Shown: positions 15,650 through 47,635, numbered from the stretch's first letter. The stretch: DNA of 64,000 nucleotides from Acidobacteriota bacterium (GCA_036507075.1 DASXQR010000010.1:26485-90484); one strand, 5' to 3'. The notes: generated by a model not told the origin, from the sequence alone. Program-made: numbers and translations.

Positions 15650-15760
15650 GTGAGCGTGAACGTAGTCGTTAACGTCTAACGTTGACGTGCACGTGGCCGT
15701 CCTCGGCTTTTTTTCTTTAGTTGCGGCTCTGCCGGGCTGTGCCTCCGTTGCGTGTTAGAA
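15650..15760. repeat. Dispersed palindromic repeat family B copy (..GACGTGCACGTGGCCGTCCTCGGCTTTTTTTCTTTAGTTGCGGC..CGGGCTGTGCCTC..)
   Basis: ~80-90% identical to the segments at 28440-28527 and 47555-47635. It forms a long stem-loop. Confidence 0.6.
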
Positions 15761-15767
15761 TAGTCGG

Positions 15768-16388
15768 ATGCAGAACAGAACACTGCCGGCAGTCATTGTC
15801 AGCCTGGTTGCCGGGTTGATCATCGGCTTTTTCGGCGGAGTGGCTTACGACTCGCAGAAGGCCGTATCAGCGCAAACGACAGCCGACCGTTCTGCTCCTG
15901 CCGACGCGACCCAGCCGGATAATTCCAAGCTTCCGGAAAACCATCCTTCCAAGGAAGTGATGGAAAAGGTCACCCATCTGCTGGAGCACGCCCAGAAGGA
16001 TCCCAATGACAAGGATTCGCGCATCGAACTGGGCAATATCTTTTATAACCTCGGCCAGTTCGAGCAGGCGATCAACTATTATGGCCAGGTCCTGGAGCTC
16101 GATCCCCGCAACGTAAACGTGCGCACGGATATGGGAACGTCATATCACTTTCTAGGCGATCATGACCGTGCTCTGAAAGAGTTTGCCATCTCGCTGAACC
16201 TGGATCCGACACATGCGGAAACCCTGCAGAACATGGGATGGGTGAAGTACAACGGAAAAAAGGACTACAAAGGCGCGCTCGAGGCCTGGAATAAGCTGCT
16301 TGCCACGCATCCGGACTATCGGCATGCCGATCAAATCCGCAAGCAGATCGAATTGGTGAAGAAAGAAATGGCGGGTGGAAAGAGTTAA
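15768..16388 (+). CDS. Membrane-anchored TPR-repeat protein
   Basis: N-terminal TM helix followed by 3-4 TPR units (..GNIFYNLGQFEQAINYYGQVLELDP.. etc.). Confidence 0.75.
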   Translation: MQNRTLPAVIVSLVAGLIIGFFGGVAYDSQKAVSAQTTADRSAPADATQPDNSKLPENHPSKEVMEKVTHLLEHAQKDPNDKDSRIELGNIFYNLGQFEQAINYYGQVLELDPRNVNVRTDMGTSYHFLGDHDRALKEFAISLNLDPTHAETLQNMGWVKYNGKKDYKGALEAWNKLLATHPDYRHADQIRKQIELVKKEMAGGKS

Positions 16389-16648
16389 TGCTCGGGCTGC
16401 TGATTCGACTAATCCTGATCCTTTTTATTCTTTACTTCATCCGCAAGGCGCTGCGAAGCCTGATGGGCGCGAGCACCGGGTCGCGCATGCCGCGCCAGAA
16501 TCGGGCTCGCGAGATCCGGGGAACGATGATGAAAGACCCGGTCTGCGGCACATACGTTGATACTCAAGCCTCGATTCGCGTCAACAGGAACGGTAAAGAT
16601 TTTTATTTTTGCTCGGAAGCCTGCAGGCGTCAGTTCGCGGCCAATTGA
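16388..16648 (+). CDS. YHS/TRASH-domain membrane protein
   Basis: N-terminal TM helix and a C-terminal DPVCGTYVD...GKDFYFCSEACRRQF metal-binding YHS motif. Start overlaps the upstream stop (ATGA). Confidence 0.7.
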   Translation: MLGLLIRLILILFILYFIRKALRSLMGASTGSRMPRQNRAREIRGTMMKDPVCGTYVDTQASIRVNRNGKDFYFCSEACRRQFAAN

Positions 16649-16665
16649 TTACCGGCAAGCTGGCC

Positions 16666-16714
16666 GGGAAAAAGGGGACAGTCCCCAATTGGAAAAAGGG
16701 GACAGTCCCCAATT
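16666..16714. repeat. Two tandem copies of a 24-bp palindromic unit (GAAAAAGGGGACAGTCCCCAATT)
   Basis: Exact duplication. The core GGGGAC-A-GTCCCC is a perfect palindrome. Confidence 0.6.
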
Positions 16715-16784
16715 AGTCTGCTCTTGTGCGTTCCTGGCGGCCTTGGCGGTTAAGGTTTTTGAATAATCCGCGCAAAAACCATTC

Positions 16785-17651
16785 GTGGCCAAAAAGAAAA
16801 TCCGCACCATAGGCATTGTCGCGAAGCTGAAACCCGAAATCGGCGATATCGTCGCCGCTGTCGTCCAATGGTGCCGCGAAAAAGGAATCAAGTTTTTTGT
16901 TGATTCCGAGTCGGCTGCGTTCCTTCCTTTCGAAGTCCCTGCCCTGCCCCGCGACCGACTTCCCTTCCGAACCGAGGTCATCGTGGTCCTGGGCGGCGAT
17001 GGCACGATCCTAGCGGCGGCGCGATCGCTCAAGAACAGCGGCACTCCCATGCTGGCAGTCAATGTCGGATCCCTCGGCTTCCTGACCGAAGTGAAACTGC
17101 AGGAGCTTTATCCGACGCTGGAGCGAGTGATCGAGAACAAGTTTTTTGTCGATGTTCGCTACATGATCGACGCACTGGTGAAACGGAAGCGAAAAGTTGT
17201 GGCAAAGTACACTGCCTTGAATGACGCAGTAATCAACAAAGGAGCGCTGGCGCGAATTATCCAGTTTGAGGCCTTCAGCAACCAGGACCAGATCGGCACC
17301 TTTCTGGCGGACGGTCTGATCATCGCCACACCAACGGGATCGACGGCATACTCGCTCTCGGCGGGTGGGCCTGTGGTGTTCCCCAACATGGAATGCCTGG
17401 TTCTTACTCCGATCTGCCCGCACACGCTGACCAACCGCCCGCTGGTGATTCCGCTCGACACAACAGTTCGCGTTGTCCTGACGCAGGGAGAAGAAGTCAT
17501 GCTGACTGTTGACGGCCAGGTCGGAACCCGTCTCCAGTTGCACGATGAAGTGGTTGTTTCCCGTTCTCGCAGCACGGTGAAACTGATTCATCCCGCCAAC
17601 AAAAACTACTTCGACGTGCTGCGCGAAAAGCTCAAATGGGGAGAGCGGTAG
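16785..17651 (+). CDS. nadK: NAD(+) kinase
   Basis: ..VVLGGDGTIL.. (GGDG motif), ..NVGSLGFLTE.., and ..GLIIATPTGSTAYSLSAGGP.. are conserved NadK motifs. Confidence 0.93.
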   Translation: MAKKKIRTIGIVAKLKPEIGDIVAAVVQWCREKGIKFFVDSESAAFLPFEVPALPRDRLPFRTEVIVVLGGDGTILAAARSLKNSGTPMLAVNVGSLGFLTEVKLQELYPTLERVIENKFFVDVRYMIDALVKRKRKVVAKYTALNDAVINKGALARIIQFEAFSNQDQIGTFLADGLIIATPTGSTAYSLSAGGPVVFPNMECLVLTPICPHTLTNRPLVIPLDTTVRVVLTQGEEVMLTVDGQVGTRLQLHDEVVVSRSRSTVKLIHPANKNYFDVLREKLKWGER

Positions 17652-17679
17652 GTAGCAAGCCGGAACATCCAAGAAAACT

Positions 17680-17853
17680 TTAACCGCCAAGATCGCCAAG
17701 AACGCTAAGAATGGCGCAAAGGACGGGGGCTGAAACTTGAAGGATGAAGGCCATAAAAGCCGTGTCACGCAGCGGTACTGTGCCTTCATCCTTCAAGTTT
17801 CAGCCCCCGTCCTTTGCGCTCTCTTGGCGCTCTTGGCGATCTTGGCGGTTAAG
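17680..17853. repeat. Palindromic MITE-like element family C (TTAACCGCCAAGATCGCCAAGAACGCTAAGA..GGACGGGGGCTGAAACTTGAAGGATGAAGGC ... mirror image)
   Basis: ~65-bp arms form a near-perfect inverted repeat around a ~40-bp loop. A second copy lies at 25745-25914 and a partial arm at 16725-16760. It sits between convergent nadK and the DHS-like gene. Confidence 0.7.
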
Positions 17854-18940
17854 TTTTCTTGGCCGCATTCTCATACTCCTGTTGCAACTGCTCCATCAGA
17901 CTGTCGAGTTTCTCCAGGAGTCGTTTCGGCTGCCTTGGTTTCCGTTTGTTGAGGGCGTAGGCGGCCATCAGCGGGAGCGCGATGGTGCAGTCCAGATAAC
18001 AGACGACCGCGTCGGGCAGCCGATCGGGATCAATCTTCCCCCAGCTCACCGCTTCTCCCGGGGTCGCTCCCGACAGACCTCCCGTGTCCGCGCGGGCGTC
18101 GGTCACCTGTAGGAAGTAATCATGTCCCTTCTCTTCAATTCCAAGAACCTCCTGAATCTGAGGCTCAGTTTGCAATACGAAATTCTTGGGCGAACCACCG
18201 CCCAGAATGACTACGGCGCTTTTTCCACCGGAACGCTTCGCTCCCAGCACGATCGCCGCCGTCTGATTTACGTCGCGGTTGACATCGAACACGAGCTTGT
18301 TACCGCTGAGAGCTTTCGCAGCCACGTTCATGCCGATTGAGCTGTCACCCGGCGATGAGGTAAAGATCGGAACCGCGTGCGTGTAAGCTGCAGACAAAAG
18401 GGAGCGGCGGTCCAGTTTGAGCATCCGCTCGCGTTCCGCCATGTAGCGGCCGATCCGATGATGAAATTCAGCCGTGCTCATGGAAGACTGAAACTCCGGG
18501 GCTGAAATCACTTCACGGTAGAAGGCGTCGGTGGACAGCAGCACGTCATATTCGAAAAAGATGTCATAAATTCGGACTACCCCTTCTTCACGCAGCACCA
18601 CGTCGCTCACGTTAGGAGTTCCGCGATGCATTTTCAGCCCGATGCCGAAGTGCGTGTCATGGTACAGATTGGCGCCCGTGCTTACAATCCAGTCTATGAA
18701 GCCCGCCTCAATCATCGGAATCAACGCGCTCCGCCCCAAGCCTGCGGGAGTAAGGGCCCCTGTGATGCCGACACCTACGGTCACGTCCGCCTCCAGCATC
18801 TTTTCGGCAAACAGATGGCATGCCTCGCGGAGCCGTGCCGCGTTGTAAGCCAGAAATGTCTGATCAATGAGCTCGACCAGAGACGTATCACCGCGGATGA
18901 TCAGCGGATCAATGGGCTTGCCTGTCAGGTATTTGCTCAT
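17849..18940 (-). CDS. Deoxyhypusine synthase family protein (homospermidine-synthase-like)
   Basis: ..[14 protein letters not shown].. / ..VFDVNRD.. / ..[10 protein letters not shown].. / ..[13 protein letters not shown].. are conserved DHS-like motifs, including the active-site Lys region. RBS GGAGGA is upstream of the trimmed start (MSKYLTG). Confidence 0.88.
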
Positions 18941-19748
18941 GATAAGGGAGTCCTCCAAGTTCCGAGCCGCCGGCGCTGCGGTGCAATCATATCTTGAACA
19001 GCTCGAATGTGGTGATCCCACCGGCAACGCATAAAAAATCCGAAAAAGCCGGGACCACGAAGGCGCGAAAGCGCGAAATGAGTCAGATCCCTTGGCTACC
19101 AAAAGGGACTGAGTATCGAAATGTTTGCGGTTCGGGTCATGCAGGAAGACTGGAACAATTTTCGATTTCGCGGCTTCGCGCCTTCGCGGTGGGTTTCTTC
19201 ATACCTTTCAAGCCCAATGGAGCTTGAGACACTGCTTGCATGTATACTGTCCTTCTGAGGGCCTCATTCAGGCCGCCTTGAATGAAAAGAATACGGTTCT
19301 GGGAACCGACAGGAAGATTGCGGCGCAAGCTGCTGGTGCTTGTGTTGACATCTTTCTTTGTGTCGGTTTTGACTGCAGAGTGTGTCCATCTCATCGACGA
19401 AACGATCGATCACGCCAGAGGTCACGCTTCAAGCGGCAGGCAGGGACCTGGCGGAGACTGGTCGCACCGCTGCCACAGTTGCCCCACCTCTCAGCCCCAG
19501 AGTCAGGGTCCGACACTGGATTTTCACATCGGGCTCAGCCCGACGCCTCTCGAACGCCCCACAAACAATGGGGGTCGTGGCTCCCTCTCTCTTGTAAGGC
19601 TTCCCGCCAAGCGCGCACCGCCCGTTTCAGTCTGACGTATCCTGAGTGCAGGACAACGACAACGCGTCCTGCTTAATCCATGCCGACTCTTCGGGCCATA
19701 CCAGGCGCCGGATGAAGTCGGCTCCTGAGTTTTCATTGGAGAAGCCGT

Positions 19749-21149
19749 ATGTATCGTGTCAGACAGAAATTGGCATTTGCCATCATTTTCTTCTCTTCTC
19801 AGATGGTGTGGAGTCCAGCGGCGCCAGCCGGTCAGCAGCCGGCCGAGCCGCGGAAGAATGAAGCACGACAAGATTTGACCCCTTCAGACGCCGCCGCTTT
19901 GAATGTGATACGCACCCAGATAGAGGCAATGAAGGCGGATTACGAAAAACGCATCAAGGACCTGGAGGACCAACTCGCACAGCTCCAATCCCGCCTGTCA
20001 CAGCAACCGGCAAGCGGCGAAATGGTGCAGGAGCCGCAGGCCCCGCAACCCGTGGTGCAGTCGATTCCCGGCGCGCTCAATCCCGCCATTTCTGTGATCG
20101 GGAATTTCGTGGGGAGAGGCGACACTCAAAAAGTGTTCAACGAAGACGGGGACCGCCTCGACAATAAAATGAACCTGCGGGAAGGCGAAATCGACATGAG
20201 AGTGCCGATCGATCCTTACGCGGATGGAGTATTGATCACGTCTTTGGAATCGGAAACTCCCGGAGCCTTTTCCGTCGACGCTGAAGAAGCCTACGTGAAC
20301 ATAAAAAAGCTCCCGTTCCTGGACCGCACACCACTGGGGCTGAGATTGAAGGTGGGCCGTTTTCGACCTGCGTTCGGCAAGATAAACATCCTGCACACGC
20401 ACGATCTTCCGCAGAGCTTTCGCCCGTTGCCGGTTGAAGAATTCATGGGTCCCAAAGGATTCAATCAGAACGGCATCTCGGCGAGTTTCTTCATTCCAAC
20501 GCCATGGGACGCCAATTCCACGTTGGATGCAACAGTAGAATTCCTGGGCGGCGGCGACGTGGCCATCTCTCCGCAAAAGCAAGCGCGAAATGCCTACCTG
20601 GCGCACCTGCGATGGTTCCGGACCGCCCGCGACACACACAATTTTGAGCTCGGCCTTTCCAGCTACTATCACCCCCGAGGCAATGACATCCGTTCCGCCA
20701 ATTTTAATGGCGTCGATTTTCTCTATCGCTGGAAGCCTTTGCGCCAGGGCGAATGGAAGTCATTCCTGCTGGGCGGTGAAATGATGTTTGCCGGTCGCGC
20801 TTACCCCGATGCGGGAGAACCGCCGGAGGTTGCCCGACTTTCCGATGAGATCCAGCCCGGATCCGGCAAGCCGTTCGGCTACACGGCATTCACTCAGTAT
20901 CAGTTCGACCGACGGAAATACGCCGGTATTCGGTGGGACCAGACCACCGCGCTTGTGAACCCCGGCTTGCGTCGCCGTGGGTTAACGCCGTACTTCTCAT
21001 ATTATTTCAGCGAGTTCCTGCGTTTCCGGCTGAACTACGAGCACCGCTGGAGCGATTTCTCGACCGAGGACCGCCGAAACTCGGTATTTCTTGAGTTGAA
21101 CTGGGTTTTCGGCGCCCATCCGCCCGAGCCGTTTTGGGTAAACAAATGA
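19749..21149 (+). CDS. Outer-membrane protein: signal peptide, N-terminal coiled coil, probable C-terminal beta-barrel (porin-like). First gene of a metal-uptake locus.
   Basis: Signal peptide, then a heptad-like IEAMKADYEKRIKDLEDQLAQLQSRL. The C-terminus has alternating hydrophobic beta-strand patterns ending ..NWVF. Confidence 0.55.
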   Translation: MYRVRQKLAFAIIFFSSQMVWSPAAPAGQQPAEPRKNEARQDLTPSDAAALNVIRTQIEAMKADYEKRIKDLEDQLAQLQSRLSQQPASGEMVQEPQAPQPVVQSIPGALNPAISVIGNFVGRGDTQKVFNEDGDRLDNKMNLREGEIDMRVPIDPYADGVLITSLESETPGAFSVDAEEAYVNIKKLPFLDRTPLGLRLKVGRFRPAFGKINILHTHDLPQSFRPLPVEEFMGPKGFNQNGISASFFIPTPWDANSTLDATVEFLGGGDVAISPQKQARNAYLAHLRWFRTARDTHNFELGLSSYYHPRGNDIRSANFNGVDFLYRWKPLRQGEWKSFLLGGEMMFAGRAYPDAGEPPEVARLSDEIQPGSGKPFGYTAFTQYQFDRRKYAGIRWDQTTALVNPGLRRRGLTPYFSYYFSEFLRFRLNYEHRWSDFSTEDRRNSVFLELNWVFGAHPPEPFWVNK

Positions 21150-21194
21150 TCCCAAACAACATTTTTCGTTTGTAAACATCGGAACGCTTATCAG

Positions 21195-22223
21195 GTGGTG
21201 CATATGAAATTTTTTAGATACGGCTTGGTTTTGTTCCTTTCTGTTCTCAATTCAGGACCGGCATTCGGGGCGGCGCAAAAAGTGCGTGTGGTATGTACTC
21301 TTCCAACCCTGCGGGCACTGACCGAGGAAGTAGGGGGTAATCGCGTCGATGTGATCAGCCTTGCAAAGGGAGATCAGGATCCGCACTTTGTCACTCCTAC
21401 CCCGGTTTTGATGAAAAAGACCCGGGAAGCGGATCTGTTCCTTGAAAACGGATTCTCGCTCGAATTATGGGCCGATGAGGTGGTCAACGGTTCCGGAAAT
21501 TCGAAGATCTTTCGGGGTACGCCGGGTCGGATTATCGCCGGAAGGAGGATTTCGGCACTCGAAATTCCGTCCGTCATCTCCCGCGAGCTGGGTGACATCC
21601 ATCCGCAGGGAAATCCACATGTCTGGCTCGATCCATTGCTGGCGAAAGTGGAAGCGGAAAACATCGCCGAGGCTCTCAAGTCAGCCGATCCGGCAGGGGC
21701 GAGCTATTATGACTCGCGGCTCGCCGATTTTGAAAGACGGATTGACCTGGCTCTATTTGGGTCGGAGCTTCTCAAGTCGGTGGGAATACAAAAACTCACT
21801 CGACTGGCGATGAGCGGCGAGCTGCATCGTTTCCTGGAGTCCAACAAGCTTACCGGCCAGGCCGGGGGCTGGCTGAAAGCTGCCGAACCTCTTCGAGGAA
21901 AGAAAGCGTACGAGTTCCACAAGGTATGGGTCTATTTCGCCCGTACTTTTGGCCTGCAGTTGGCCGGCACGATCGAAGAGCGGCCGGGGATCCCTCCGGG
22001 ACCGCAACACGTTCGGCAAGTGACCGAAAGAATAAAAGCGGAAAAGATCCCGCTTATTCTGGTGGATAATTTTTACGACGCCGCGCTGCCGCGAAACATC
22101 GCACGGCAAACAGGAGCAAGCGTTGTGGTGCTTCCCAATCAGGTGGATGGCGAGCCGGGGATCAAGACCTACTTTGATCTGATCGACCATATAATTCAGA
22201 AGATCGCGGCGGCGGTTAAGTAG
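21195..22223 (+). CDS. Metal (Zn/Mn) ABC transporter substrate-binding protein, ZnuA/TroA family
   Basis: Signal peptide. ..VVCTLPTLRALTEEVGG..VDVISLAKGDQDPHFV.P.. and ..DPHVWLDP.. are hallmark cluster-9 SBP motifs. Confidence 0.85.
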   Translation: MVHMKFFRYGLVLFLSVLNSGPAFGAAQKVRVVCTLPTLRALTEEVGGNRVDVISLAKGDQDPHFVTPTPVLMKKTREADLFLENGFSLELWADEVVNGSGNSKIFRGTPGRIIAGRRISALEIPSVISRELGDIHPQGNPHVWLDPLLAKVEAENIAEALKSADPAGASYYDSRLADFERRIDLALFGSELLKSVGIQKLTRLAMSGELHRFLESNKLTGQAGGWLKAAEPLRGKKAYEFHKVWVYFARTFGLQLAGTIEERPGIPPGPQHVRQVTERIKAEKIPLILVDNFYDAALPRNIARQTGASVVVLPNQVDGEPGIKTYFDLIDHIIQKIAAAVK

Positions 22224-22229
22224 AAAGTT

Positions 22230-22722
22230 TGCGAGTTGCGGGTTTGCGGGTTGCGGGTTTGCGCGTTGCGGGTTTGCGCGTTTGCGGGTTTGCGCGTTGC
22301 GGGTTTGCGCGTTTGCGCGTTTGCGGGTTTGCGGGTTGCGGGTTGCGGGTTTGCGGGTTACCGGGTTGCGGGTTTGCGCGTTTGCGGATTTGCGGGTTTG
22401 CGGGTTACCGGGTTGCGGGTTTGCGCGTTGCGGGTTTGCGCGTTGCGGGTTTACGGGTTGCGAGTTTGTGGGTTGCGGGGTTTGCGGGCTCAAACGATTC
22501 AGAGCCAGTCGCCGGTTGAAAAGCAGAGATTAAAAATTATTAAAAATTAAAAATTCCGAAAATTTCGAATTTTCAATTTTGAACCCGAACCTAAAGCGAA
22601 ACCCGAAACCTCATAATCCGGAAACCCACAACGTGGAACCCGTAACCCGTAAACTCGTAACCCGGAAACCCATAACCCGTAGACCTGGAACCCGTAACCC
22701 GGAAACCCGTAACTTGTAACTC
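22230..22722. repeat. ~490-bp inverted microsatellite: (GCGGGTT/GCGCGTT)n over ~270 bp, an AT-rich loop, then the complementary (AACCCGY/AACCCGTA)n array
   Basis: Heptamer periodicity is directly visible. The second half is the reverse complement of the first, giving a giant potential hairpin between the metal-binding-protein gene and the permease gene. Confidence 0.9.
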
Positions 22723-22742
22723 AAGCTGTAGCGCGAGGGCGC

Positions 22743-24194: not shown

Positions 24195-24224
24195 CGCTTG
24201 ATTCTGCAGGTTCGGCAAGGATTG

Positions 24225-24379
24225 TTCACCACAAAGGCACACAGAACACGAAGCAAGAGGCGGGGCGGGCAGAGACCGGTCAGCTTTAAAAACTCGTCGC
24301 TACGGGTCACCTTATTTTCGCTGACCGGTCTCTGCCCGCCCCGCGTCTTACTTTGTGCCCTTTGTGCCTTTGTGGTGAA
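24225..24379. repeat. 155-bp near-perfect palindrome (TTCACCACAAAGGCACA...GGGCGGGCAGAGACCGGTCAGC ... GCTGACCGGTCTCTGCCCGCCCC...TGTGCCTTTGTGGTGAA), a bidirectional-terminator-like hairpin
   Basis: Long inverted repeat between convergent genes (permease-HEAT on + and HAD hydrolase on -). Its arms carry the CACAAAG family motif. Confidence 0.65.
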
Positions 24380-24396
24380 AAGGCTTTTCCGAATTT

Positions 24397-25005: not shown

Positions 25006-25013
25006 GGAAGGTG

Positions 25014-25694: not shown

Positions 25695-25744
25695 GTCACG
25701 TTACCGGTTTCCGGGCGCGCAAGCCTGGATTATTCACAAATCTC

Positions 25745-25914
25745 AACCGCCAAGAACGCTAACAGCGCTAAGAAAAGCGCCAAGGACGGGGGCTGAAACT
25801 TGAAGTATGAAGGCACCACGCATAGGCTTGACGCGGTTGATAACTTTCATACTTCAAGTTTCAGCCCCCGTCCTTGGCGCTCTCTTGGCGTTCTTGGTGT
25901 TCTTCGCGGTTAAG
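25745..25914. repeat. Palindromic MITE-like element family C, second copy
   Basis: Arms ..CCGCCAAGAACGCTAACAGCGCTAAGAAAAGCGCCAAGGACGGGGGCTGAAACTTGAAGTATGAAGGC.. and their mirror image. ~80% identical to 17680-17853. Confidence 0.7.
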
Positions 25915-25954
25915 ATTTGTGAATAATCCAGGTTTACGCGCCTGGCAGCCAATG

Positions 25955-27478: not shown

Positions 27479-27553
27479 CCGTTAACCTCCGCGTCATTGA
27501 CAGCGCCCAAGAATATCAGTGGGATATCGCGCTAGCAAGCGCGGATCATCGCC

Positions 27554-28393
27554 ATGAAAATCATTGACACGCATCGGCACCTGTGGGATCTGGATCTGTT
27601 CTCGTACTCCTGGTGCAGGAACATCCCCGCTCTGAATCGCAGCTTTCGAATGAACGATTATAGGGAAGCGATTCAGCACCTGAACGTAACCAAGTCCGTT
27701 CATCTGGAAGCCGATGTGGATGAACCCTGGATGCTTCAGGAGACACGGCACATTCTCGCGCTTGCCGCACAGGACAACCTCTTGCAGGGAGTGGTGGCCT
27801 GCTGCCGTCCCGAGAAAAAAAGTTTCCGGGCATACCTGGATCAAATCGCAGGCGAGCCGGCATTAAAAGGAGTTCGCCGCGTACTGCACACCCAACCCGA
27901 CGAGCTATCGCAGAGCAGTCTATTTATCGAGAATATTCGCTCTCTCGCCGATTATGGCCTCTGTTTCGACATTTGTGTGTTGGCCCGCCAGCTTCCATTG
28001 GCTTTCCAGTTGGTCCGGGCATGCCCGGACGTTTCTTTTATCCTGGACCATTGCGGCAATCCACTGATCAGGGAAGGATTGGCGAAACCGTGGCGCGCTC
28101 AGATGGGCGAGATGGCTTTGCTGCCCAACCTGGTTTGCAAGATTTCGGGAATTGTGACGAACGCGGATCTAGACCACTGGTCTACCGAAAATCTGCGTCC
28201 CTATGTAGAGCACGTGCTGGAGCGCTTTGGTTGGGACCGCGTGATATTTGGCAGCGATTGGCCTGTGTGCACCCTTGCCGCAAGCTTGACGGAATGGGTC
28301 GAGGCTTTGATGAAAATCACCGGAACGGCTTCTCTGCAGGATCAGGAAAAACTCTTCTGGCGCAATGCGGAGAGAATTTACCGGCTTGGCTAG
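27554..28393 (+). CDS. Amidohydrolase-2 family metal-dependent hydrolase
   Basis: MKIIDTHRHLWD... HxH start. ..ILDHCGNP.. and ..FGSDWP.. are amidohydrolase_2 metal-ligand motifs. Confidence 0.85.
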   Translation: MKIIDTHRHLWDLDLFSYSWCRNIPALNRSFRMNDYREAIQHLNVTKSVHLEADVDEPWMLQETRHILALAAQDNLLQGVVACCRPEKKSFRAYLDQIAGEPALKGVRRVLHTQPDELSQSSLFIENIRSLADYGLCFDICVLARQLPLAFQLVRACPDVSFILDHCGNPLIREGLAKPWRAQMGEMALLPNLVCKISGIVTNADLDHWSTENLRPYVEHVLERFGWDRVIFGSDWPVCTLAASLTEWVEALMKITGTASLQDQEKLFWRNAERIYRLG

Positions 28394-28406: not shown

Positions 28407-28527
28407 ATCACCACAAAGACACAGCCCGGCCGCTGGCTGCAACCAAAAAGCCGTCGACGTGCACGTGAGCCTCCTCGGCTTTTTCTTTGGTTGCGGCCTA
28501 CGGCCGGGCTGTGCCTCTGTGGTGAAA
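28407..28527. repeat. Dispersed palindromic repeat family B, complete hairpin copy (CACCACAAAGACACAGCCCGGCCG..GCAACCAAAAAGCCGTCGACGTGCACGTGAGCCTCCTCGGCTTTTTCTTTGGTTGCGGC..CGGGCTGTGCCTCTGTGGTGA)
   Basis: Left and right halves are reverse complements. The right half is ~85-90% identical to 15680-15750 and 47560-47635. Confidence 0.7.
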
Positions 28528-29596: not shown

Positions 29597-29923
29597 TACC
29601 ACCTTTTTTTCACCTCTCTGGTCATTGTCCTCCCAGACGCACATTCGAGTCAAGCTGTCTCTGGCGCAGGTAGTGATCTGGCTTGTGCCCGTCGAGAAAA
29701 AGACTTCACCACAGAGGTTTAGCGCGGCAGAGCCGCAACCAAAAGTCAAGGAGAGACGGCCTGAGGGCCGTCTCTCTGCGGTGCCCTGCCAAGCTGAGAC
29801 GGCCGTCAGGCCGTCTCTCCGCTCCCGAATGATTTGCGCAGGCCCCGAAAATTCTCAATGGTGCACGCCAGGAGAAACTGATAGAGACGGGCGGGAGAAC
29901 AAAGTAGCCGATAGGAGGTCCGA

Positions 29924-35679: not shown

Positions 35680-35682
35680 GAC

Positions 35683-40120: not shown

Positions 40121-40227
40121 CGCACACGAAGCGGCCCAACTCGGCGAGCGAGGCTTGAGACAATATCGGAAATACAAGACGGCGAGTTGATCACGAATTT
40201 CACGAATGCGCGAATTTCGTGCTCAAC

Positions 40228-41769: not shown

Positions 41770-41774
41770 GGTTA

Positions 41775-42860
41775 TCAGGTTCTCACACCCAAGCCAAGTA
41801 TCTCTTTGCAGTACCGGATGCTCTTCTCCAGCTCTGATTTCTGGAATTCCCTTTCCGCCGACGCCCGATCCTGACCTGTGGGAATCGCAAAAGCAGTCAT
41901 CGGCCTGCCTCTTTTGGCCAAAGCAAGGAATTTCGCGAAGTCACTTGCCTTCGCTTTGGGGTAAGGCTTCCAGAATTCTGGTTTCAAATACGGAAAGCGT
42001 CTTTGAGATCCCGAAATGATTTCCAACACGAAGGCAACTCCCGGGCAAAGCTGCGCAAATCTGTCGACGTAGGCATGGAAATCCACCGAGCCTTCGCCGA
42101 TTCCTGTCCACTGAACCGCAGCTCCTTCATCGGTTTCCCACACCACAGAATTACGCAGGCCGGTGGTAACGGCATACGCGCCCAGAACCTCCAGGTTTGC
42201 CAGCGGATCCTCCAGCGTCCAGACCGCATTTCCGGAGTCCATCGTTGCGCCTACGTAATCTCGGCCTGCCTCTTCAATCAGGGTGACAAGTTCCCAGGCC
42301 TGCATATCTCCGGCATGATTTTCAACAGCGATCTTGATCCCTGCGTCGAGCGCCAGACTGCGCGCGCTCCGGCAAACCTTGACAGTGTTCTTAATGTGGG
42401 TTTCGATTCCTCCCTCTGACTTTCGGTCTTCACTGTTTCCCAGATAACAACGTGCCACGGGCGAGCCGACCACTTTGGCCACGCGAATAGTCAGCGCCAG
42501 GTGCTCTTCGGCAGTGCCGAAACGATTGCTGAACGTCCTGGAAGAAGGACAGATGCTGCCGGTGCCGGCATGAATTTCAAGACCCAGATGGTCGGCCTTC
42601 GCTTTAACCTCTTTGAGGTAATTGTCTGAATGACTTTCGTACACATCGAGGTCGGACAGAAGCAGAGTATCGACCTTTAACCCAGCAGCATAATCGAGCA
42701 ATTGCGGAGCTTTCCATCCAAAGGCGCGAATGGAGAAATTGTCGAAGCCGAGCTTGATATTTCTGCGCGAGGATTGTGCCCGACTCGAAGTAGTGACAGC
42801 CAATGATGCACCGCCAACAACCGCCTTTTTCAGGAAATCACGACGCGGTTGGGAATTCAT
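41775..42860 (-). CDS. Tat-secreted sugar phosphate isomerase/epimerase (xylose-isomerase-like TIM barrel)
   Basis: Tat-type signal ([21 protein letters not shown]). ..IAVENHAGD.. / ..EIHAGTGS.. are TIM-barrel metal-site motifs. Confidence 0.8.
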
Positions 42861-43022
42861 CTGTTTCTATTCTTCTTCTTATGTCCGGAAAATTCCAGCG
42901 CATTCATTACTTCAAAGAGCAATCCAAGCTACAAATAAAATTAGGTTCGTAAAAACACCCTGGCAAGTACTCCGCTCGTAGATACCGGACATTATAAGCG
43001 GAAGTGGAAGAAAGGGGACAAT

Positions 43023-44273
43023 TTGAAGATCAAAGTCATTGTACTCCTGCTATTTGCGATGATCATGCTCGCTATAGTAGGTGAGGCGCAGGTACCTAAA
43101 CCAAAATTTAGACGCGTGGCTCAGCGAATGCCCGACAACTATATTGTTGTCTTTAAGGACACTGTATCGACTGCTGATGTTCCCTCAATTGCCCGGCAGA
43201 TCGCTAGCGCACACAATTCTGTGGCCCGCTTTATCTATCAATACGCCCTTAAGGGTTTTGCAGTTCAGGTGTCTGAAGCTGACGCTATTGAGATCAGCAA
43301 CGACTCTCGCGTTGAATGGGTAGAGGAAGATGCCGTCGGATCCATTGTTGAGCAGTGGGGCCTGGATAGGATCGATCAGCGGTATCTACCATTGGACAAT
43401 GTCTATTCCTTTTGGCAACTTGCGGCAAACGTAAACATTTATGTCCTAGATACCGGCATTCGGGCCACTCACTCAGAGTTTGGGGGACGAGTAGTTTCTG
43501 CTTTCGATGCTGTTCAAGCAAACTGCTATTGTGGTTTCACATGTGACAATGCATTCGCTGCTACCCGAGGGCATGGGACGGCTGTTGCTAGTGTTGCTTC
43601 AGGGGCAACATACGGCGTGATTAGAAACGCGACCCTTTATGACGTCAGAGTGGTTAATTGTGACGGCGGTGTGGATTCTGCAAAACTCATCAGCGGAATC
43701 AATTGGGTTACTCAGAATTTCGTCGGTCCTGCGGTTGCGAATATTAGTAGCGCTATCGCTGCGAATGACTCGGTCGATACCGCGGTGCGAAATTCGGCAG
43801 CGGCAGGGGTTCTCTATGTTGTTGGTGCGGGCAATGACAGTACAGACGCAATAGGTTATTCCCCTGCCCGCATGGCCGACATTGAGGTTCTCACCGTTGG
43901 CGCAACCGACATTGTCGATCGACGCGGCCATGACTGGGATCCCCAGAATCCGATAAAAGGTTCGAATTGGGGCTCCGTAGTGGATATCTTTGCGCCAGGT
44001 ACGAATATTAATGTCGCATGGTCAGATAGCGACTCTGATACGCGGACGGGTATAAATGGCACCTCCTTGGCAAGCCCGTACGTTGCAGGAGTTGCGGCGC
44101 ATTACAAGCAGCAGCACCCCGGGGCGAGCCCGACTACGGTTGCTAATTGGATCATCGGTATCGCAACTTCAGGTGTTGTAACTGATCAGCGTCCAGACGG
44201 ATGGATTCTCGGAATTGACCAAGTTCATCCGGGCACGCCCAATCGGCTGCTGTTTCAACCGTTCTCGTTCTGA
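43023..44273 (+). CDS. Secreted subtilisin-like serine protease (S8 family, proteinase-K-like) with N-terminal I9 inhibitor propeptide
   Basis: Signal peptide. Propeptide ..YIVVFKD.. Catalytic triad in context: ..VYVLDTGI.. (D), ..HGTAVASVASG.. (H), ..GTSLASPYVAGVAA.. (S). GC ~48%. Confidence 0.9.
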   Translation: MKIKVIVLLLFAMIMLAIVGEAQVPKPKFRRVAQRMPDNYIVVFKDTVSTADVPSIARQIASAHNSVARFIYQYALKGFAVQVSEADAIEISNDSRVEWVEEDAVGSIVEQWGLDRIDQRYLPLDNVYSFWQLAANVNIYVLDTGIRATHSEFGGRVVSAFDAVQANCYCGFTCDNAFAATRGHGTAVASVASGATYGVIRNATLYDVRVVNCDGGVDSAKLISGINWVTQNFVGPAVANISSAIAANDSVDTAVRNSAAAGVLYVVGAGNDSTDAIGYSPARMADIEVLTVGATDIVDRRGHDWDPQNPIKGSNWGSVVDIFAPGTNINVAWSDSDSDTRTGINGTSLASPYVAGVAAHYKQQHPGASPTTVANWIIGIATSGVVTDQRPDGWILGIDQVHPGTPNRLLFQPFSF

Positions 44274-44336
44274 GGAGCGAAGTGATCGAAGAAAAAAGGC
44301 ACTTGGCGACTTTTTTCCTGCTCTCGCATCTTTTGT

Positions 44337-45563
44337 TTGCGAATCGGCGAAAGCAAATGGTGGGGGGAGATCTTGAGGCGGAAAATATTTCAAATTAAGG
44401 CCTTCTTGCTGTTTTCAGTCTTTTTGTGGCCTAGCTATGGCCAGAATCTTGGTGGAACTGCCTATCAGCAGACCGTCGAGAACACGCTCGCTGGATCGCT
44501 TCTTTATCATTTCGTCGCTCACACCGGCACAATTGACACAGCTTTGAGCCTTTCAAACGTGCGAATAGACCCTTTGACCGCCCCGACTCCTGGTACATTC
44601 GAAATTCTCATGTTTGGCGATGATGGCACTTTTGTAAGAGCTCATTCTAATCAACTGAAGGGTGGAGTATTCAACTTGGTGGGCTCGACCGATCGGGGAT
44701 TGCAAGCAACGGCTGCCTTCTTTCTGGGAGACGTTTTCGCCGATCTCGGTTTGCCTCCAACAACCAGGTTCGTTGGATATGTCAGGATTAATCACAGTTT
44801 CACGAAGGCTGCAGGAACGGCTCAGGTCATGGATCTCGGTGCCGGCCGTGGATTCCGAATAGGCTACACGGCTTCAGAGATTTCGACAGCCCCTGTCATC
44901 AAAAGCATTTCTCCTTCACCTGTTGACGCTGGGGTTGTTGTGACACTGTCCGTGTCGGGTGAGAATTTTTTTTCCGGGCTGACTGCCTCAATTACCACTG
45001 ACGATGGCACAATCGTCGTTCCCCCAAATGATCTGTTGGTTGATTCTTCCAGCCAGATCCGTATACGCGCAATCTTTGCAGAAAAGACAGCAGCATACGC
45101 GGCGACGATTACAGTTAAGAATCCGGACGGCCAAAACAGCTCTGGAATAGTTCAAGTACGAGCATCGAAGAAACCGTTTAGTCAACTGCAAGCACAGCGA
45201 CTCCTCGGGACCTGGGTGTTCACCTACTCGAACAATCGCCCTGCTGAAACATACCGTTTCACAGAGGTCAAGGAAGGCGGGCCGGGCCAGCATCAGGCTA
45301 TTGGTGAACGCCTTCCCACTGGGTTCCCGGGATCTGCGACTACACCCCTGCCAGCCAGCGGTTATTACGATTTCAACCTGAAGAAGTTCGTAATCAATAC
45401 GTTGTATGGTGCTGTCTCCACATCTCACGTGTTTGAATTTAACTCGCCAGGAATGATTTCAGGCTGCTTTTCGAGTGCTTTCATAAAACGTTCAGACACT
45501 GCTGATAGAAACGCAGACGCTTGCGAGGTGACTTTTACCGGAAGACTTGTTTCTCTGCCCTGA
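44337..45563 (+). CDS. Hypothetical secreted protein with a possible IPT/TIG-like domain, low GC
   Basis: Signal-peptide-like LRRKIFQIKAFLLFSVFLWPSYGQ. ..ISPSPVDAGVVVTLSVSGENFFSGLTASIT.. resembles an IPT/TIG Ig-like fold. The true start codon is uncertain. Confidence 0.45.
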   Translation: MRIGESKWWGEILRRKIFQIKAFLLFSVFLWPSYGQNLGGTAYQQTVENTLAGSLLYHFVAHTGTIDTALSLSNVRIDPLTAPTPGTFEILMFGDDGTFVRAHSNQLKGGVFNLVGSTDRGLQATAAFFLGDVFADLGLPPTTRFVGYVRINHSFTKAAGTAQVMDLGAGRGFRIGYTASEISTAPVIKSISPSPVDAGVVVTLSVSGENFFSGLTASITTDDGTIVVPPNDLLVDSSSQIRIRAIFAEKTAAYAATITVKNPDGQNSSGIVQVRASKKPFSQLQAQRLLGTWVFTYSNNRPAETYRFTEVKEGGPGQHQAIGERLPTGFPGSATTPLPASGYYDFNLKKFVINTLYGAVSTSHVFEFNSPGMISGCFSSAFIKRSDTADRNADACEVTFTGRLVSLP

Positions 45564-45735
45564 CGAAAGCCCAACTCCTTCACCAAACAGAAATTTTCTC
45601 TCAATCGGATTGACTCCGGGCCCGTGCATCGCTGACTGCATTTCGCTGAAAATTCACCATTTGCATCTCCGGCTGACTCCTAAAAGCTAAAAGATTCTTT
45701 GTGCCCTTCGTATCTTTGTGGTGATATTGGGAGTG

Positions 45736-47292
45736 ATGAACTCAAACTTTTCAACTATCGCCACGCGCCTTTCAGGCAAACGCGGCATCTGGCCGGTGCT
45801 GGTACTTCTTGCCATCCTGCACAGCACAGTGCCGCTGGCGCCGCAAAGCTTCGATGCCCGCTCCATCGATGACATGGTTCAAGACGGGCTCAGGATTTGG
45901 GAGGTGCCGGGCGCTTCACTGGCGATCGTCCGGGATGACAGGCTGATTCACTTAAAAGGATACGGCGTCAAGCGGCTGGGTACCGCCGACCCGGTCACCA
46001 CGGAAACCTTATTTGCGATTGCGTCCACAACCAAAGCCTTTACAACAACCGCTATGGCGATGCTTGTCGATGAACGCAAGATGGAATGGGACGAGCCGGT
46101 TCGCAAACACCTCGAGTATTTTCATTTGTCCGATCCGCTGGCCGATCAAAATGTGACATCGCGTGATTTGGTTACTCATCGCACCGGCTTGAGCCGTAAC
46201 GATGCGCTCTGGGACCGGTCTCCCTGGTCGCGCGAGGAAATCATTCGGCGGATTGCTTTCGTCAAACCGGCGCGACCGTTCCGCACGACCTATCAATATA
46301 ACAACATCATGTTTGTCGCCGCCGGGGAAGCAGTGGGAAAAGCTGCGGGCATGACCTGGGACAATTTTGTACGCCGCCGGATTTTCATTCCACTGGGAAT
46401 GAGCAGTGCCAATTTCAGCGTTTCGGTCGCGGAAAAAGCCGCCGATCATGCCACGCCCCATCGAAAGAACAAACAGGGCAGGATCGAAGTTACGTCCTGG
46501 CACAACGTGGACAATATCGGCGGGGCGGGCTGCATCAATGCCGGCGCCAGAGATATGAGCCAGTGGCTCCGCTTTCAGCTTTCAGACGGAGTTTTCAACG
46601 GAAAGCGCCTGGTATCGAGCGAGAACCTTGCAGAAAGCCACACTCCTCAAATTGTGATCCGTATGGACACACCCACTCGTGCACTTAATCCTTACACTAC
46701 GCAGATGAGTTATGGCATGGGATGGATCGTTCACGATTACCACGGACGTCGGTTGCTTTCGCATACGGGGGGATTGAATGGCTTTCGGGCTCGCATCGTG
46801 CTCGTTCCGGATGAAAAACTGGGAATCGTGATCCTGACAAATTCCAGTGTCGGGACCAGTAGCGCTTCCATGCATGTCGCGGTCACAAACAACCTGCTCG
46901 ATCTGCTGCTGGGCTTCACCCGGACGGACTGGAACGTCCTGCTGATGCAGCAGGCCGGCAAGTTTCTTTCAGAAGAGCGGGCCAGGATTGAAGAAAGGCA
47001 GGAGAAAAGACAGAAGGACACCCGGCCGTCTCACCCGCTTGCCGATTATGCGGGAAGCTACGAAGAACCTGCCTACGGCAAAGCGACCATCAAGATGCAG
47101 AATGGAAACCTTGAGCTGCATTGGAGCAGTTTTACGACACGACTGGAACATTTCCACTACGATACGTTCGTGGCTGCCGAGACAGATGAACTTCAGGACG
47201 AGCAGGTGCAGTTTGGTTTGGACATGAGCGGAGAGGTTGCCCGGATTAATTTTCTGGGAATGGATTTTGCCAGGATTAAAGCAAAGCAGTAG
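45736..47292 (+). CDS. Serine hydrolase of the beta-lactamase/transpeptidase-like superfamily (class-C-like) with C-terminal DUF3471-like domain
   Basis: Signal peptide. ..FAIASTTKAFTTTAM.. is the SxxK active site. ..YQYNNIM.. (Y-x-N) and ..HTGG.. (KTG-like) are present. Start trimmed to MNSNFS (RBS GGGAG). Confidence 0.85.
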   Translation: MNSNFSTIATRLSGKRGIWPVLVLLAILHSTVPLAPQSFDARSIDDMVQDGLRIWEVPGASLAIVRDDRLIHLKGYGVKRLGTADPVTTETLFAIASTTKAFTTTAMAMLVDERKMEWDEPVRKHLEYFHLSDPLADQNVTSRDLVTHRTGLSRNDALWDRSPWSREEIIRRIAFVKPARPFRTTYQYNNIMFVAAGEAVGKAAGMTWDNFVRRRIFIPLGMSSANFSVSVAEKAADHATPHRKNKQGRIEVTSWHNVDNIGGAGCINAGARDMSQWLRFQLSDGVFNGKRLVSSENLAESHTPQIVIRMDTPTRALNPYTTQMSYGMGWIVHDYHGRRLLSHTGGLNGFRARIVLVPDEKLGIVILTNSSVGTSSASMHVAVTNNLLDLLLGFTRTDWNVLLMQQAGKFLSEERARIEERQEKRQKDTRPSHPLADYAGSYEEPAYGKATIKMQNGNLELHWSSFTTRLEHFHYDTFVAAETDELQDEQVQFGLDMSGEVARINFLGMDFARIKAKQ

Positions 47293-47534
47293 TGGCATAC
47301 GCCTGGGAGGACTCGGTGTGAAACTTTCGGGCTGACCACTGTAAGCTAAAAGAAAACATCCGATCACGTCAACGTCGACGTTTATCGTCTACGGCCACGT
47401 GCACGTCAATGTCCACGGAACACGTCCAAGCTGATTGACAGATTACGAGCTTAATCATTTTGGCAACATGGACATGATGCGTTGTCTTGTGGCACACCTG
47501 ACCGGCTGGCAGGCAAACTCGCGATTTTTTCTTC

Positions 47535-47635
47535 GTGACCGTTGACGTAGTCGTTAACGCGCACGTGCACGTGGCCGTCCTCGGCTTTTTCTTTGGTTGC
47601 AACCTACAGCCCGGGCTGTGCCTCTATTGGAAAGC
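47535..47635. repeat. Dispersed palindromic repeat family B copy, preceded (47380-47530) by ACGT-rich degenerate direct repeats
   Basis: ..GTTGACGTAGTCGTTAACGCGCACGTGCACGTGGCCGTCCTCGGCTTTTTCTTTGGTTGCAACCTACAGCCCGGGCTGTGCCTC.. is ~90% identical to 15660-15750. Confidence 0.6.

Follow-up and report, generated by a model that had tools for sequence, protein, structure and literature searches.

The intergenic gaps of an Acidobacteriota MAG chromosome, examined over a window of 64,000 nt (the whole stretch of DNA analysed), carry about 20 palindromic elements, and about half of these hairpins from a soil bacterium have arm sequences that bracket GxxExxY genes in many other bacteria and some archaea, so that they resemble copies of a so far undescribed miniature mobile element from which the gene is missing. 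On balance, with slightly more weight for this reading than against it, the hairpins can be placed in a miniature-element family as MITE/REPIN-like members that lack the gene, the full form consisting of a GxxExxY gene and inverted arms or hairpins.

The presence of palindromic repeats throughout the window is confirmed. The preliminary description had nearly every intergenic gap occupied, which agrees with our own count: from 8 to 64 kb, 21 gaps reach 100 nt and 18 of them hold an element, among them all five convergent gaps, while divergent gaps hold three elements. Individual elements are 70-500 nt long and lack ORFs, with arms of 25-85 nt that are 81-100% complementary and built from tandem 7-9-nt units, and each family has 2-5 copies within the 64 kb and more in related MAGs. 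Counting arms of 18 nt or longer, the window has 14 hairpins (13 of them intergenic) vs 0-4 in shuffles, and TCACCACAAAGNCACAAAG is matched seven times with up to three mismatches vs 0.05 expected. No tRNAs were found in the window. All four families described previously were recovered where they had been placed, including the GTTGTCCGTGG motif at each of its four sites (14714-14745, 50741-50775, 51020-51045 and 59525-59605), and the elements at 22227-22720, 50301-50452, 59356-59461 and 19047-19197, which had been overlooked, complete the following list, in which no strand is assigned.

E2, 11603-11675: arms of CACAAAG units in 'inside-out' order (…CTTTGTGGTGA, 9 nt, TCACCACAAAG…), 30-nt arms, 90% complementary
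E3, 14713-14745: solo arm of two 14-nt GTTGTCCGTGG(T/C)CA units
B1, 15650-15760: Family B right half and ACGT-heptamer array, with a terminator-like core of GGCCGTCCTCGGC and T-run
E5, 16667-16714: two units of 24 nt that each form a GGGGACAGTCCCC mini-palindrome and have a minus-strand T-run
E6, 16725-16760: solo Family C right-type arm (…CTTGGCGGTTAAGG), then the TTTGAATAATCC outer motif
C1, 17666-17865: full Family C hairpin in which TTAACCGCCAAGA units precede a perfect inner stem of 38 nt, dG -140
E22, 19047-19197: CGCGAAG hairpin with ACCACGAAGGCGCGAAAGCGCGAAA arms, in a divergent gap
E8, 22227-22720: giant hairpin of ~500 nt, left arm of ~34 GTTTGCGG/GTTGCGG units, right arm of ~16 complementary units, AT-rich loop
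E9, 24211-24393: hairpin whose outer arms are TTCACCACAAAG… and whose GC-rich inner stem is unique, 74-nt arms, 85% complementary
C2, 25706-25950: full Family C hairpin with an additional outer layer GGATTATTCACAAA / TTTGTGAATAATCC, dG -184
B2, 28408-28525: complete Family B palindrome, outer ends TCACCACAAAGACACAG / CTGTGCCTCTGTGGTGA, core stem and T-run on both strands
E12, 29750-29820: hairpin with 25-nt arms GGAGAGACGGCC… (96%), no tandem units, terminator-like on the minus strand, family membership uncertain
E14, 45694-45725: solo CACAAAG right-type arm, ~10 nt upstream of the start of a beta-lactamase-family gene
B3, 47360-47635: composite of an ACGT-heptamer hairpin (47360-47585) and a Family B right half (47563-47635)
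E16, 50301-50452: GAATGCG/GAATGGG heptamer hairpin between TPR and Dabb genes, 41-nt arms, 88% complementary
E17, 50751-51046: layered hairpin, outer GTCCGTGG/GTTGTC units, inner GTTGCGGGTTTTCGG units, 81-nt arms, 81% complementary
E18, 55846-56257: nested inverted repeats (arms of 57 nt separated by 298 nt, arms of 53 nt separated by 57 nt), no tandem units
E19, 59356-59461: CGCAGAG hairpin TTCACCGCAGAGG…, 44-nt arms, 93% complementary
E20, 59519-59611: GTCCGTTGTC / GACAACGG hairpin of the GGACAAC family
E21, 63120-63282: hairpin with ATTATTCACAAAC outer motif and CACGAAG/CACAAAG units

About ten of these elements share one arm grammar, in which an outer end T(T/A)(C/A)ACC(A/G)C is followed by N-RAG-N-C(A/G)C repeats with a tandem unit length of 8-9 nt, the units including CACAAAG, CGCAGAG, CGCCAAGA, CGCGAAG and CACGAAG. 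Family B fits it too at its outer ends. The families of the preliminary description cannot be treated as independent of one another, about half of the elements having this one grammar in common and about half lying outside it. Under a working definition of a cassette arm (inward-facing, with an ACC(A/G)C end and at least three tandem C(A/G)C-N-RAG units; a non-curated family), the window contains eight strict cassette-type arms, from E2, C1, E9, C2 and E19, and looser matches in E6, E14, E21, E22 and B2.

The heptamer families (GTTGCGG, GGAATGC, GGACAAC and ACGT-type) have the same design and are not tied to GxxExxY by these data. E17 and E8 belong to one unit family, and E16, with 8.7 copies of GAATGCG, gives 89-91% matches to non-orthologous arrays in loci L126 and L127. 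The relative of the GTTTGCGG hairpin at 50755-51046 and the shared ACC(A/G)C grammar had also been overlooked. E18 is of a different kind and its membership among the elements is doubtful. The array at 9972-10272 consists of a 37-nt unit repeated head-to-tail 8.2 times at 90% identity, and a CRISPR reading of it was dropped because it has no unique spacers.

Families B and C provide the evidence for copying. The three Family B copies have in common a right half of ~75 nt, running from ACGTGCACGTG via CCTCGGCTTTTTCTTTGGTTGC to GGGCTGTGCCTC; the palindrome is complete in 28408-28525 alone (arms of 40 nt, 88% complementary), the copies at 15650 and 47535 being half elements fused to an ACGT-rich heptamer array. 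The full Family C hairpins, at 17666-17865 and 25706-25950, have inner stems that pair perfectly over 38 and 36 nt, and every copy of this family shows the same three left/right asymmetries. The C1 hairpin, located between convergent NAD kinase and deoxyhypusine synthase (DHS) genes with GTTTTCTT tails, has an orthologous copy in L123 that differs by 6-7 mirrored changes and one unmirrored change, the inner stem being preserved through mirrored changes in both arms. The left half of B2 has homology in L044, a locus of a related MAG. The recurrence of both complex, non-repetitive cores, alike in left/right polarity and asymmetries, at sites that are unrelated and also in a related MAG calls for copying rather than independent growth.

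Orthologous gaps in related Acidobacteriota are empty or filled by different hairpins. The C1 site is empty in L120-L122, the C2 gap measures 52 nt in L120, E2, which is sited between SHMT and helicase genes and has its GGTGA ends at the loop, is absent from the orthologous 34-nt gap of L120, E5 is absent from the close relative L123, and L120 has 36 nt and L124 2 nt in the gap between znuA and ABC-3 where E8 sits inside an operon. Together with the B and C cores, this turnover bears out the MITE/REP-like proliferation proposed from the window. The motifs are also not unique to it, as CACAAAG, CGCAGAG, GGAATG, Family B and Family C were all found outside, and a GGACAAC/GTCCGTGG-type hairpin is present in L044.

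A candidate for the full-length element with matching termini, which the preliminary description suggested looking for, was found in other genomes, where such termini bracket GxxExxY genes; the partner protein is a PD-(D/E)XK protein and not a known transposase. The GxxExxY gene encodes ~120 aa (PF13366/TIGR04256) with a PD-(D/E)XK nuclease fold; the function of PF13366 is listed as 'unknown' (Steczkiewicz 2012, PMC3424549), and the gene frequently has several copies and a scattered phylogenetic distribution (PMC3424549). The exact 19-nt CACAAAG arm motif occurs in more than 119 genome loci among the matches listed, vs ~17 loci that we estimate by chance, spanning ~20 phyla including archaea (Methanotrichaceae), and many of these loci are inverted pairs 45-176 nt across. 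Among the matches listed, all five GxxExxY genes in such loci adjoin the arms, and the arms of E19 are 96-100% identical over 22-29 nt to GxxExxY-flanking arms in L150 and L208.

This association extends to a sample of 80 metagenomic GxxExxY genes chosen independently of the arm motif, in which inward-facing three-unit arms are present on both flanks of 46 genes and on one flank of 18, giving 64 of 80 with the arm grammar on at least one flank vs 3% of background windows. The PF13366 assignment held at E <= 1e-10 for all but 2 of the 8000 candidates scored. In the cassettes the last unit lies directly upstream of the GxxExxY start codon. Loci L188 and L203 have arms and gene in common and otherwise unrelated flanks, and in L226 (1660-1880) one hairpin is inserted within the loop of another. 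Two closed isolate replicons, from Bernardetia and Gemmatirosa, carry an arm-flanked GxxExxY gene; in Gemmatirosa the gene is flanked by two hairpins, with gene-less hairpins of the same arms at most 40 kb away. The 64-kb window itself contains no GxxExxY gene. A wider proposal, possible and held only tentatively, is that GxxExxY genes with tandem-unit inverted arms form a previously unrecognised pan-prokaryotic minimal mobile element with a 120-aa PD-(D/E)XK nuclease as its sole enzyme and gene-less hairpins in more than 20 phyla, including archaea; if so, the large PF13366 family would have its first role and RAYT/REPIN a second, mechanistically distinct counterpart.

Arm and protein co-vary weakly: the nearest protein neighbour has the same arm unit in 25 of 61 cases vs 24% expected, the observed difference being reached in 165 of 2000 permutations, and unit type does not follow GC content. 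Several cassettes are syntenic between related contigs and are therefore often vertically inherited. The GxxExxY gene was found in 8 of 72,556 plasmid records and gave 15 matches in IMG/VR, with no record in the phage collection, and this near-absence from plasmids and absence from phages therefore leaves no obvious vehicle for spread across phyla. A second cargo, the four-helix-bundle (23S IVS) protein, was not detected with a consensus seed in 1.33 Mb of loci, a weak negative. No account of repeats flanking the gene was found in the literature on GxxExxY, PDDEXK_3, PF13366, TIGR04256 and the arm strings.

Under the preferred reading, the full element would comprise a ~120-aa GxxExxY gene between inverted arms of 30-45 nt or whole hairpins. 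We infer that hairpins are mobilised by this nuclease, which, encoded elsewhere in the genome, would recognise folded or duplex arms and, acting in trans, copy or move hairpins without duplicating the target, with a preference for gaps at gene ends and for the loops of hairpins already present. Slippage would later lengthen and shorten the unit arrays, and copies would be kept on the view that stable hairpins at 3' ends are neutral or of slight benefit, possibly through protection of mRNA 3' ends and occasional termination. The best reading of the hairpins at gene ends is that they are tolerated there.

The main alternative is that host structural hairpins, serving as terminators or mRNA 3'-end protectors, grow in place through slippage of 7-9-nt units and palindrome-templated repair, are immobile, and have arms that are an insertion target of GxxExxY genes and other hairpins. 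Growth in place agrees with the homogeneity of units inside each element, with the NAD kinase/DHS gap holding different unit families by lineage, with the short degenerate arm of L123 at the site of a longer window arm, with the unequal arms of E8 (~34 vs 16 units) and with the weak co-variation of protein and arm. Nesting of hairpins within loops also fits, indicating that loops are insertion targets, as does the occupancy of every convergent gap. This alternative is nonetheless rather unlikely, as the Family B and C cores with their shared asymmetries need copying, L188 and L203 are alike in arms and gene and in nothing else, and one arm of 19-34 nt recurs across ~20 phyla among the matches listed. 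Gaps filled by different families in each lineage and the unequal arrays of E8 can be accommodated by growth in place as well.

The same alternative draws on the resemblance of the Family B core to a bidirectional intrinsic terminator, a role the preliminary description had thought probable for the repeats generally. The Family B core (on both strands), the E5 units and 29751-29776 (E12) are alone in having a short GC stem followed by a T-run, and terminator-like sites number 38 vs 24 ± 5 in shuffles of 10-30 kb. From sequence, the look of an intrinsic terminator appears limited to Family B, the E5 units, E12 and perhaps C1. The bidirectional reading suits the Family B core, but the large ACC(A/G)C-type hairpins have no T-runs, the giant hairpin lies inside the znuA/ABC-3 operon (genes 2-36 nt apart in relatives) and three elements are in divergent gaps, so that a bidirectional-terminator role appears weakly supported. 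The lack of T-runs in most large hairpins and the elements in divergent gaps and within an operon also count against growth in place.

Less probable again are RNA-level elements conserved for a role, whether in RNase III processing (comparable to the intervening sequences of 23S rRNA), as switches sequestering the RBS of an enclosed or downstream gene, or as sRNA precursors. The maintenance of the Family C stem via mirrored changes would be expected of such elements, but DNA cruciforms or single-stranded DNA hairpins predict perfect palindromy equally. A comparison of G:T with A:C mismatches in the stems, intended to distinguish selection on RNA from selection on DNA, gave no bias that follows the transcribed strand and did not separate the two. 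SD-like RAG/GGAG is present in the units, with CTCC in the opposite arm, the last cassette unit immediately precedes the GxxExxY start codon and solo arms lie 10-60 nt ahead of start codons, E6 being directly upstream of the NAD kinase gene. Against this, no hairpin matched Rfam at gathering thresholds (the sole window match being a group II intron domain), and cross-phylum identity and copy-number dynamics are left unexplained, making this alternative improbable. The chance that the palindromes are assembly or binning artefacts (chimeric joins or foreign reads in MAGs) is negligible: the majority of loci are MAG contigs and short-read contigs of the same organism stop within hairpins, but independent Logan contigs match the window at 100% across B1, E5, E6, the C1 left arm and E20, the same architecture is present in closed chromosomes and in isolates from culture, and orthologous copies come from separate studies.

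Among known systems, the elements resemble REP/REPIN-RAYT (Nunvar 2010; Bertels & Rainey 2011, PMC3116915, PMC3337134; Di Nocera 2013, PMC3733652) as extragenic hairpin-forming palindromes that are numerous between genes, convergent ones above all, form lineage-specific populations without evident target-site duplication, and flank a small nuclease-type gene in inverted orientation. Unlike REPs, which are imperfect palindromes of 20-40 nt with a GTAG/CGTC tag, they have tandem-repetitive arms of 30-85 nt starting T(T/A)(C/A)ACC(A/G)C, and the absence of the tag places them outside the REP/REPIN class. The flanked gene is the 120-aa PD-(D/E)XK GxxExxY (PF13366/TIGR04256) and not an HUH-Y1 RAYT, which sets them apart from RAYT-linked repeats; no Y1 transposase was present among the Pfam matches of the scanned window ORFs. 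RAYT genes are single-copy and vertically inherited, in contrast to the often multi-copy and scattered GxxExxY gene (PMC3424549).

Prokaryotic MITEs (reviewed in PMC10969869; Delihas 2011, PMC3184786), such as Chunjie, Correia and SPRITE/BOX/RUP, are likewise small intergenic elements without coding capacity that have terminal inverted repeats, fold stably, include truncated and solo copies and insert into each other; as in Chunjie one copy is inside an operon, and as in SPRITE some copies are terminator-like. The window elements have the terminal inverted repeats, size below ~600 bp, non-coding nature and several copies per family expected of MITEs. They differ in being whole palindromes rather than TIRs and a core, in their internally tandem-repetitive arms, in a putative full-length partner encoding no known transposase, and in target-site duplication, which was not visible in five aligned Gemmatirosa copies nor obvious in our reading of the alignment flanks of the window Family C copies, although a duplication of 1-2 nt may be present in either set. 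The 2024 MITE review (PMC10969869) does not mention tandem-repeat arms, nucleases or Acidobacteria.

Two further systems share parts of this design. The period-7/8 arrays, such as GAATGCG x 8.7 and GTTTGCGG x 34, appear similar to the STRR heptamer and small dispersed repeats of cyanobacteria (Mazel 1990; Elhai 2008), tandem heptanucleotide intergenic arrays that are often inverted and accompanied by nested small palindromic repeats, and for which no link to a flanked gene is known. The 7-nt STRR units of heterocystous cyanobacteria are CCCCAGT, TTGGTCA and CAACAGT. With different units and an acidobacterial host, the window arrays are not STRR members. A long inverted-repeat stem, a ~120-aa ORF in the loop and gene-less forms are also features of the 23S rRNA intervening sequences of Leptospira and Coxiella, which are thought to be mobile, but those lie within rRNA, are processed by RNase III and encode the four-helix-bundle protein PF05635 and not GxxExxY.

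Intergenic palindromic repeats are common, and a candidate enzyme is available for very few besides REPs (RAYT). The arms of ordinary-looking acidobacterial hairpins lead here to a testable rule, namely that these arms also lie on either side of a highly abundant PD-(D/E)XK gene. If the nuclease mobilises the hairpins, PF13366 would gain a function and the tandem-unit hairpins of many phyla, possibly including cyanobacterial STRR-type arrays, would be explained, while a minimal hairpin-recognising nuclease would become open to study and annotation pipelines could mask or label such elements. The hairpins also break short-read assemblies, because contigs end within them, and may influence operon expression, as in znuA/ABC-3.

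The gene content of the window is chromosomal and housekeeping (SHMT, NAD kinase, deoxyhypusine synthase (DHS), ABC transporters and permeases). The preliminary description had reported MITE/REP-like families in its intergenic gaps; all of the listed elements were recovered where they had been placed, and repeat and fold analyses added several more, giving about 20 palindromic or half-palindromic elements that span 9.9-63.3 kb of the window. The elements far exceed what chance would give: 0.05 matches to the CACAAAG arm pattern are expected in the window and 7 are seen, and hairpins whose arms reach 18 nt or more number 14 compared with 0-4 in shuffles, 13 of the 14 being intergenic. The claim that nearly every gap is occupied is borne out by our own count on the ORF map, in which 18 of the 21 gaps that are 100 nt or longer hold one or more elements; convergent gaps are occupied in five of five cases, and three divergent gaps hold B1, E22 and E12. 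Two short-read Logan contigs from the same organism (L223 and L224), identical to the window, stop inside or at hairpins (the C1 left arm, B1 and just past E20), indicating that these elements fragment short-read assemblies.

Rather than being arbitrary inverted repeats, the arms are built as tandem arrays of 7-9-nt units, which are uniform inside one element and differ among families. A single grammar is present in about ten elements, in which an outer end of the form T(T/A)(C/A)ACC(A/G)C is followed by repeated N-RAG-N(0-3)-C(A/G)C.

Arm units and outer ends of the numbered window elements (first six rows: elements with the single grammar; last four rows: families with other units)
CACAAAG units: E2, E9 and E14
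CGCCAAGA units: Family C and E6
CGCAGAG units: E19
CGCGAAG units: E22
CACGAAG units: E21
TCACCACAAAGACACAG … CTGTGCCTCTGTGGTGA: complete Family B copy, with outer ends fitting the grammar
GTTTGCGG/GTTGCGG units: E8 and E17
GAATGCG units: E16
GTTGTCCGTGG/GGACAAC units: E3, the outer layer of E17, and E20
ACGT-rich heptamer: Family B copies B1 and B3

Many elements are layered, passing from outside in through a lineage-specific palindrome (such as GGATTATTCACAAA), a unit array, a unique inner stem and a loop; ATTATTCACAAA is an example of the lineage-specific outer layer. Family B forms a full palindrome solely at 28408-28525, its remaining two copies being a right half fused to ACGT arrays, while E3, E6 and E14 are solo arms. 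In E2 the 'outer' ends abut at the loop. Such tail-to-tail junctions, in which a few nt separate a right-type arm end (…GGTGA) from a left-type end (TCACC…), were seen at window 11603-11675 (E2) and in comparison loci L005, L023, L033, L045, L090, L099 and L116, and resemble insertion-sequence circle junctions or tandem copies.

The G-rich arm of E8 (22227-22488, + strand; GGGTTTGCGGGTTGCGGG…) has G3 runs separated by 4-5 nt across 260 nt and matches the G-quadruplex motif many times over, the opposite arm being its C-rich complement. Between a CBM-domain gene and SHMT, at 9972-10272, a 37-nt unit (GGCCGCCGATTTGCGCGGAATTGCGCGGATTGATATC) is repeated 8.2 times, and its two TTGCGCGGA sub-repeats are similar to the GTTTGCGCG units seen in the giant hairpin at 22227; this head-to-tail array of 37-nt repeats was rejected as a CRISPR array. 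A 96-aa Dabb (stress-responsive A/B barrel) gene (50456-50746, - strand) lies between two unrelated complete hairpins, E16 and E17, and small genes can thus be boxed in without being cargo.

The exact 19-mer TCACCACAAAGNCACAAAG, an arm motif, occurs at 119 or more loci in a scan of 185,579 species genomes, with about 17 matches expected by chance on our own estimate. Among the viral contigs of IMG/VR there are only 15 loci. Among the matches listed, record titles point to about 20 phyla, with carriers in Planctomycetota, Chloroflexota, Bacteroidota, Acidobacteriota, Cyanobacteriota, Bacillota, several proteobacterial classes, Verrucomicrobiota, many candidate phyla and the archaeal Methanotrichaceae, and closed chromosomes are present. 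The typical arm among these matches is TTCACCACAAAG(G/A)CACAAAG(G/A)(A/G)CAC(A/G)AAG, usually with an inverted partner arm, the whole element being 45-176 nt across.

In a few of the listed loci the arm pair spans 367-503 nt as a whole element, and in L041, L076 and L108 a small ORF lies between the arms and is scored as TIGR04256 'GxxExxY protein' / PF13366 PDDEXK_3, a nuclease-fold protein. Within the 845 kb of loci listed, all five GxxExxY genes adjoin an arm and four of the five are precisely bracketed. To counter motif-selection bias, 80 metagenomic GxxExxY loci were picked by protein alone. Strong flanking inverted repeats (score of at least 40; null maximum 30) were present in 45 of the 80, and the strict three-unit pattern gave inward-facing arms on both flanks in 46/80 and on one flank in 18/80, compared with 3% of background windows. 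Units at these loci (CACAGAG, CGCAGAG, CACGGAG, CACGAAG, CGCCGAG, CACAAAG and CACCAAG) are of the same vocabulary as the window's, and the E19 arms are 96-100% identical over 22-29 nt to those around the GxxExxY genes of L150 and L208. We found no prior description of this gene-arm association in the open-access literature.

The cassette layout was also found on two replicons of cultured isolates. In Bernardetia, ade and a guanylyltransferase gene are the neighbours of the GxxExxY gene, which has inverted CACAGAG units on its flanks. In Gemmatirosa kalamazoonensis, two complete hairpins with arms TGAACCGCAGAGGACGCAGAGGGCCGCAGAGGA flank the gene, and gene-less hairpins of like design occupy three more sites within 40 kb, of which that at 28167-28234 has an arm identical to those of the gene-flanking hairpins and the others are CACAGAG/CACGGAG variants. 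The same arrangement is known from RAYT genes and REPINs.

The boundaries of the unit are shown by L188 and L203, which are 82% identical across exactly the arms and gene (TTTACCGCC … GCGGTAA) and unrelated beyond. Gemmatirosa also shows nesting, in which a CGCAGAG hairpin holds in its loop a CACAGAG hairpin that is complete to its own TTGAACC…GGTTCAA ends (DNA fold z = -12), and hairpin-in-loop insertion of this kind explains the layered window elements. No target-site duplication is visible in the Gemmatirosa copies or, on our own reading, in the flanks of the window's Family C copies. Synteny between contigs is seen for some cassettes, indicating that vertical inheritance also occurs.

Comparison with relatives whose NAD kinase is 73-89% identical shows that turnover of hairpins at syntenic gaps is fast. 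In L120-L122 the NAD kinase and DHS genes are separated by 6 nt; elsewhere this gap holds Family C (window and L123), a 330-nt CGAAGT-unit hairpin (L124/L125) or a GGAATG array (L126/L127), and the znuA/ABC-3 gap is 519 nt in the window versus 2-36 nt in relatives. E2, C2 and the E5 units are missing from relatives, and where the window has the E6 arm, L123 retains no more than a short, degenerate remnant. The preliminary description had named uniqueness of each motif to the window as what would refute its reading. This does not hold: related genomes contain a GGACAAC-type hairpin (L044) and parts of Family B (L044), of Family C (L123) and of the GGAATG family (L126/127), so none of these motifs is private to the window. 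In the xseB-ispA region of L044 (5950-8000; related Acidobacteriota MAG GCA_036006905), four families lie within 2 kb: a GTCCGTGG/GGACAAC hairpin, a GTCATCG heptamer hairpin of about 300 nt, a solo GACAAC arm, and an ATTATTCACAAG + TCACCACAAAG arm after ispA.

Left arms of the three Family C copies were aligned with the reverse-complemented right arms. In the inner stem, 6-7 element-specific differences are on both arms and one is on a single arm, and three left/right asymmetries (T·G, A·C and a 1-nt bulge) are common to all copies. The mirrored changes and common asymmetries indicate that the copies derive from one polar ancestor and that inner-stem pairing is maintained, the relevant molecule being RNA, ssDNA or a cruciform. 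In a wobble comparison, G:T versus A:C mismatches in the stems gave no bias in line with the transcribed strand. The proposed role as bidirectional terminators would suit the Family B core, which has a short GC stem and T-run on both strands; the only others with a short GC stem and T-run are the E5 units, 29751-29776 and perhaps C1. As a general account it fails, because operon-internal and divergent-gap copies exist.

Alongside the observed common arm grammar, gene bracketing, unit boundaries, nesting, turnover and compensatory stem maintenance, the most economical account, and a somewhat probable one, is that the window hairpins are gene-less derivatives of GxxExxY cassettes. For the same observations, the main rival, in which hairpins grow in place and merely attract insertions, appears rather unlikely. 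If the hairpins are cassette derivatives, we infer a mechanism in which a GxxExxY nuclease would spread them in trans without target duplication, preferring gene-end gaps and existing loops; unit slippage may then remodel them, and they could persist as 3'-end structures that do no harm or are mildly useful. The heptamer families may belong to the same group. Among known systems, REPIN/RAYT, prokaryotic MITEs, cyanobacterial STRR arrays and ORF-bearing rRNA intervening sequences come closest; from each of the first three, the window elements differ in at least one tested defining feature.

Other features of the window include six imperfect inverted repeats of about 100 nt at 1-8200 (GCCTAACG…GGCATCAGCCGCGCG … CGCGGTGGCGCGTCGGC…ATGCCGGGGGTTAGGC), with attC-like outer RYYYAAC / GTTRRRY ends. 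The cassettes between them are small and encode ParE toxins (125-424 and 1603-1914) and a DUF2442 protein (6514-6810). This region looks like an integron cassette array; no integrase lies within the 64-kb window. Rfam Intron_gpII (domain V/VI) matches 52961-53033 (- strand), within the 210 nt that precede the lactate permease gene, with 42.5 bits where the gathering score is 40; no reverse-transcriptase ORF is nearby, and this may be a fragment or borderline match. The long non-coding stretch upstream of 56286 (55057-55710) repeats the initial ~100 nt of the lactate permease gene (55536-55633 versus 52782-52879, 79% identity) and has a 51-nt direct repeat at 55127-55177 and 55656-55706, 529 nt apart; these features suggest 5' duplication or pseudogene debris.
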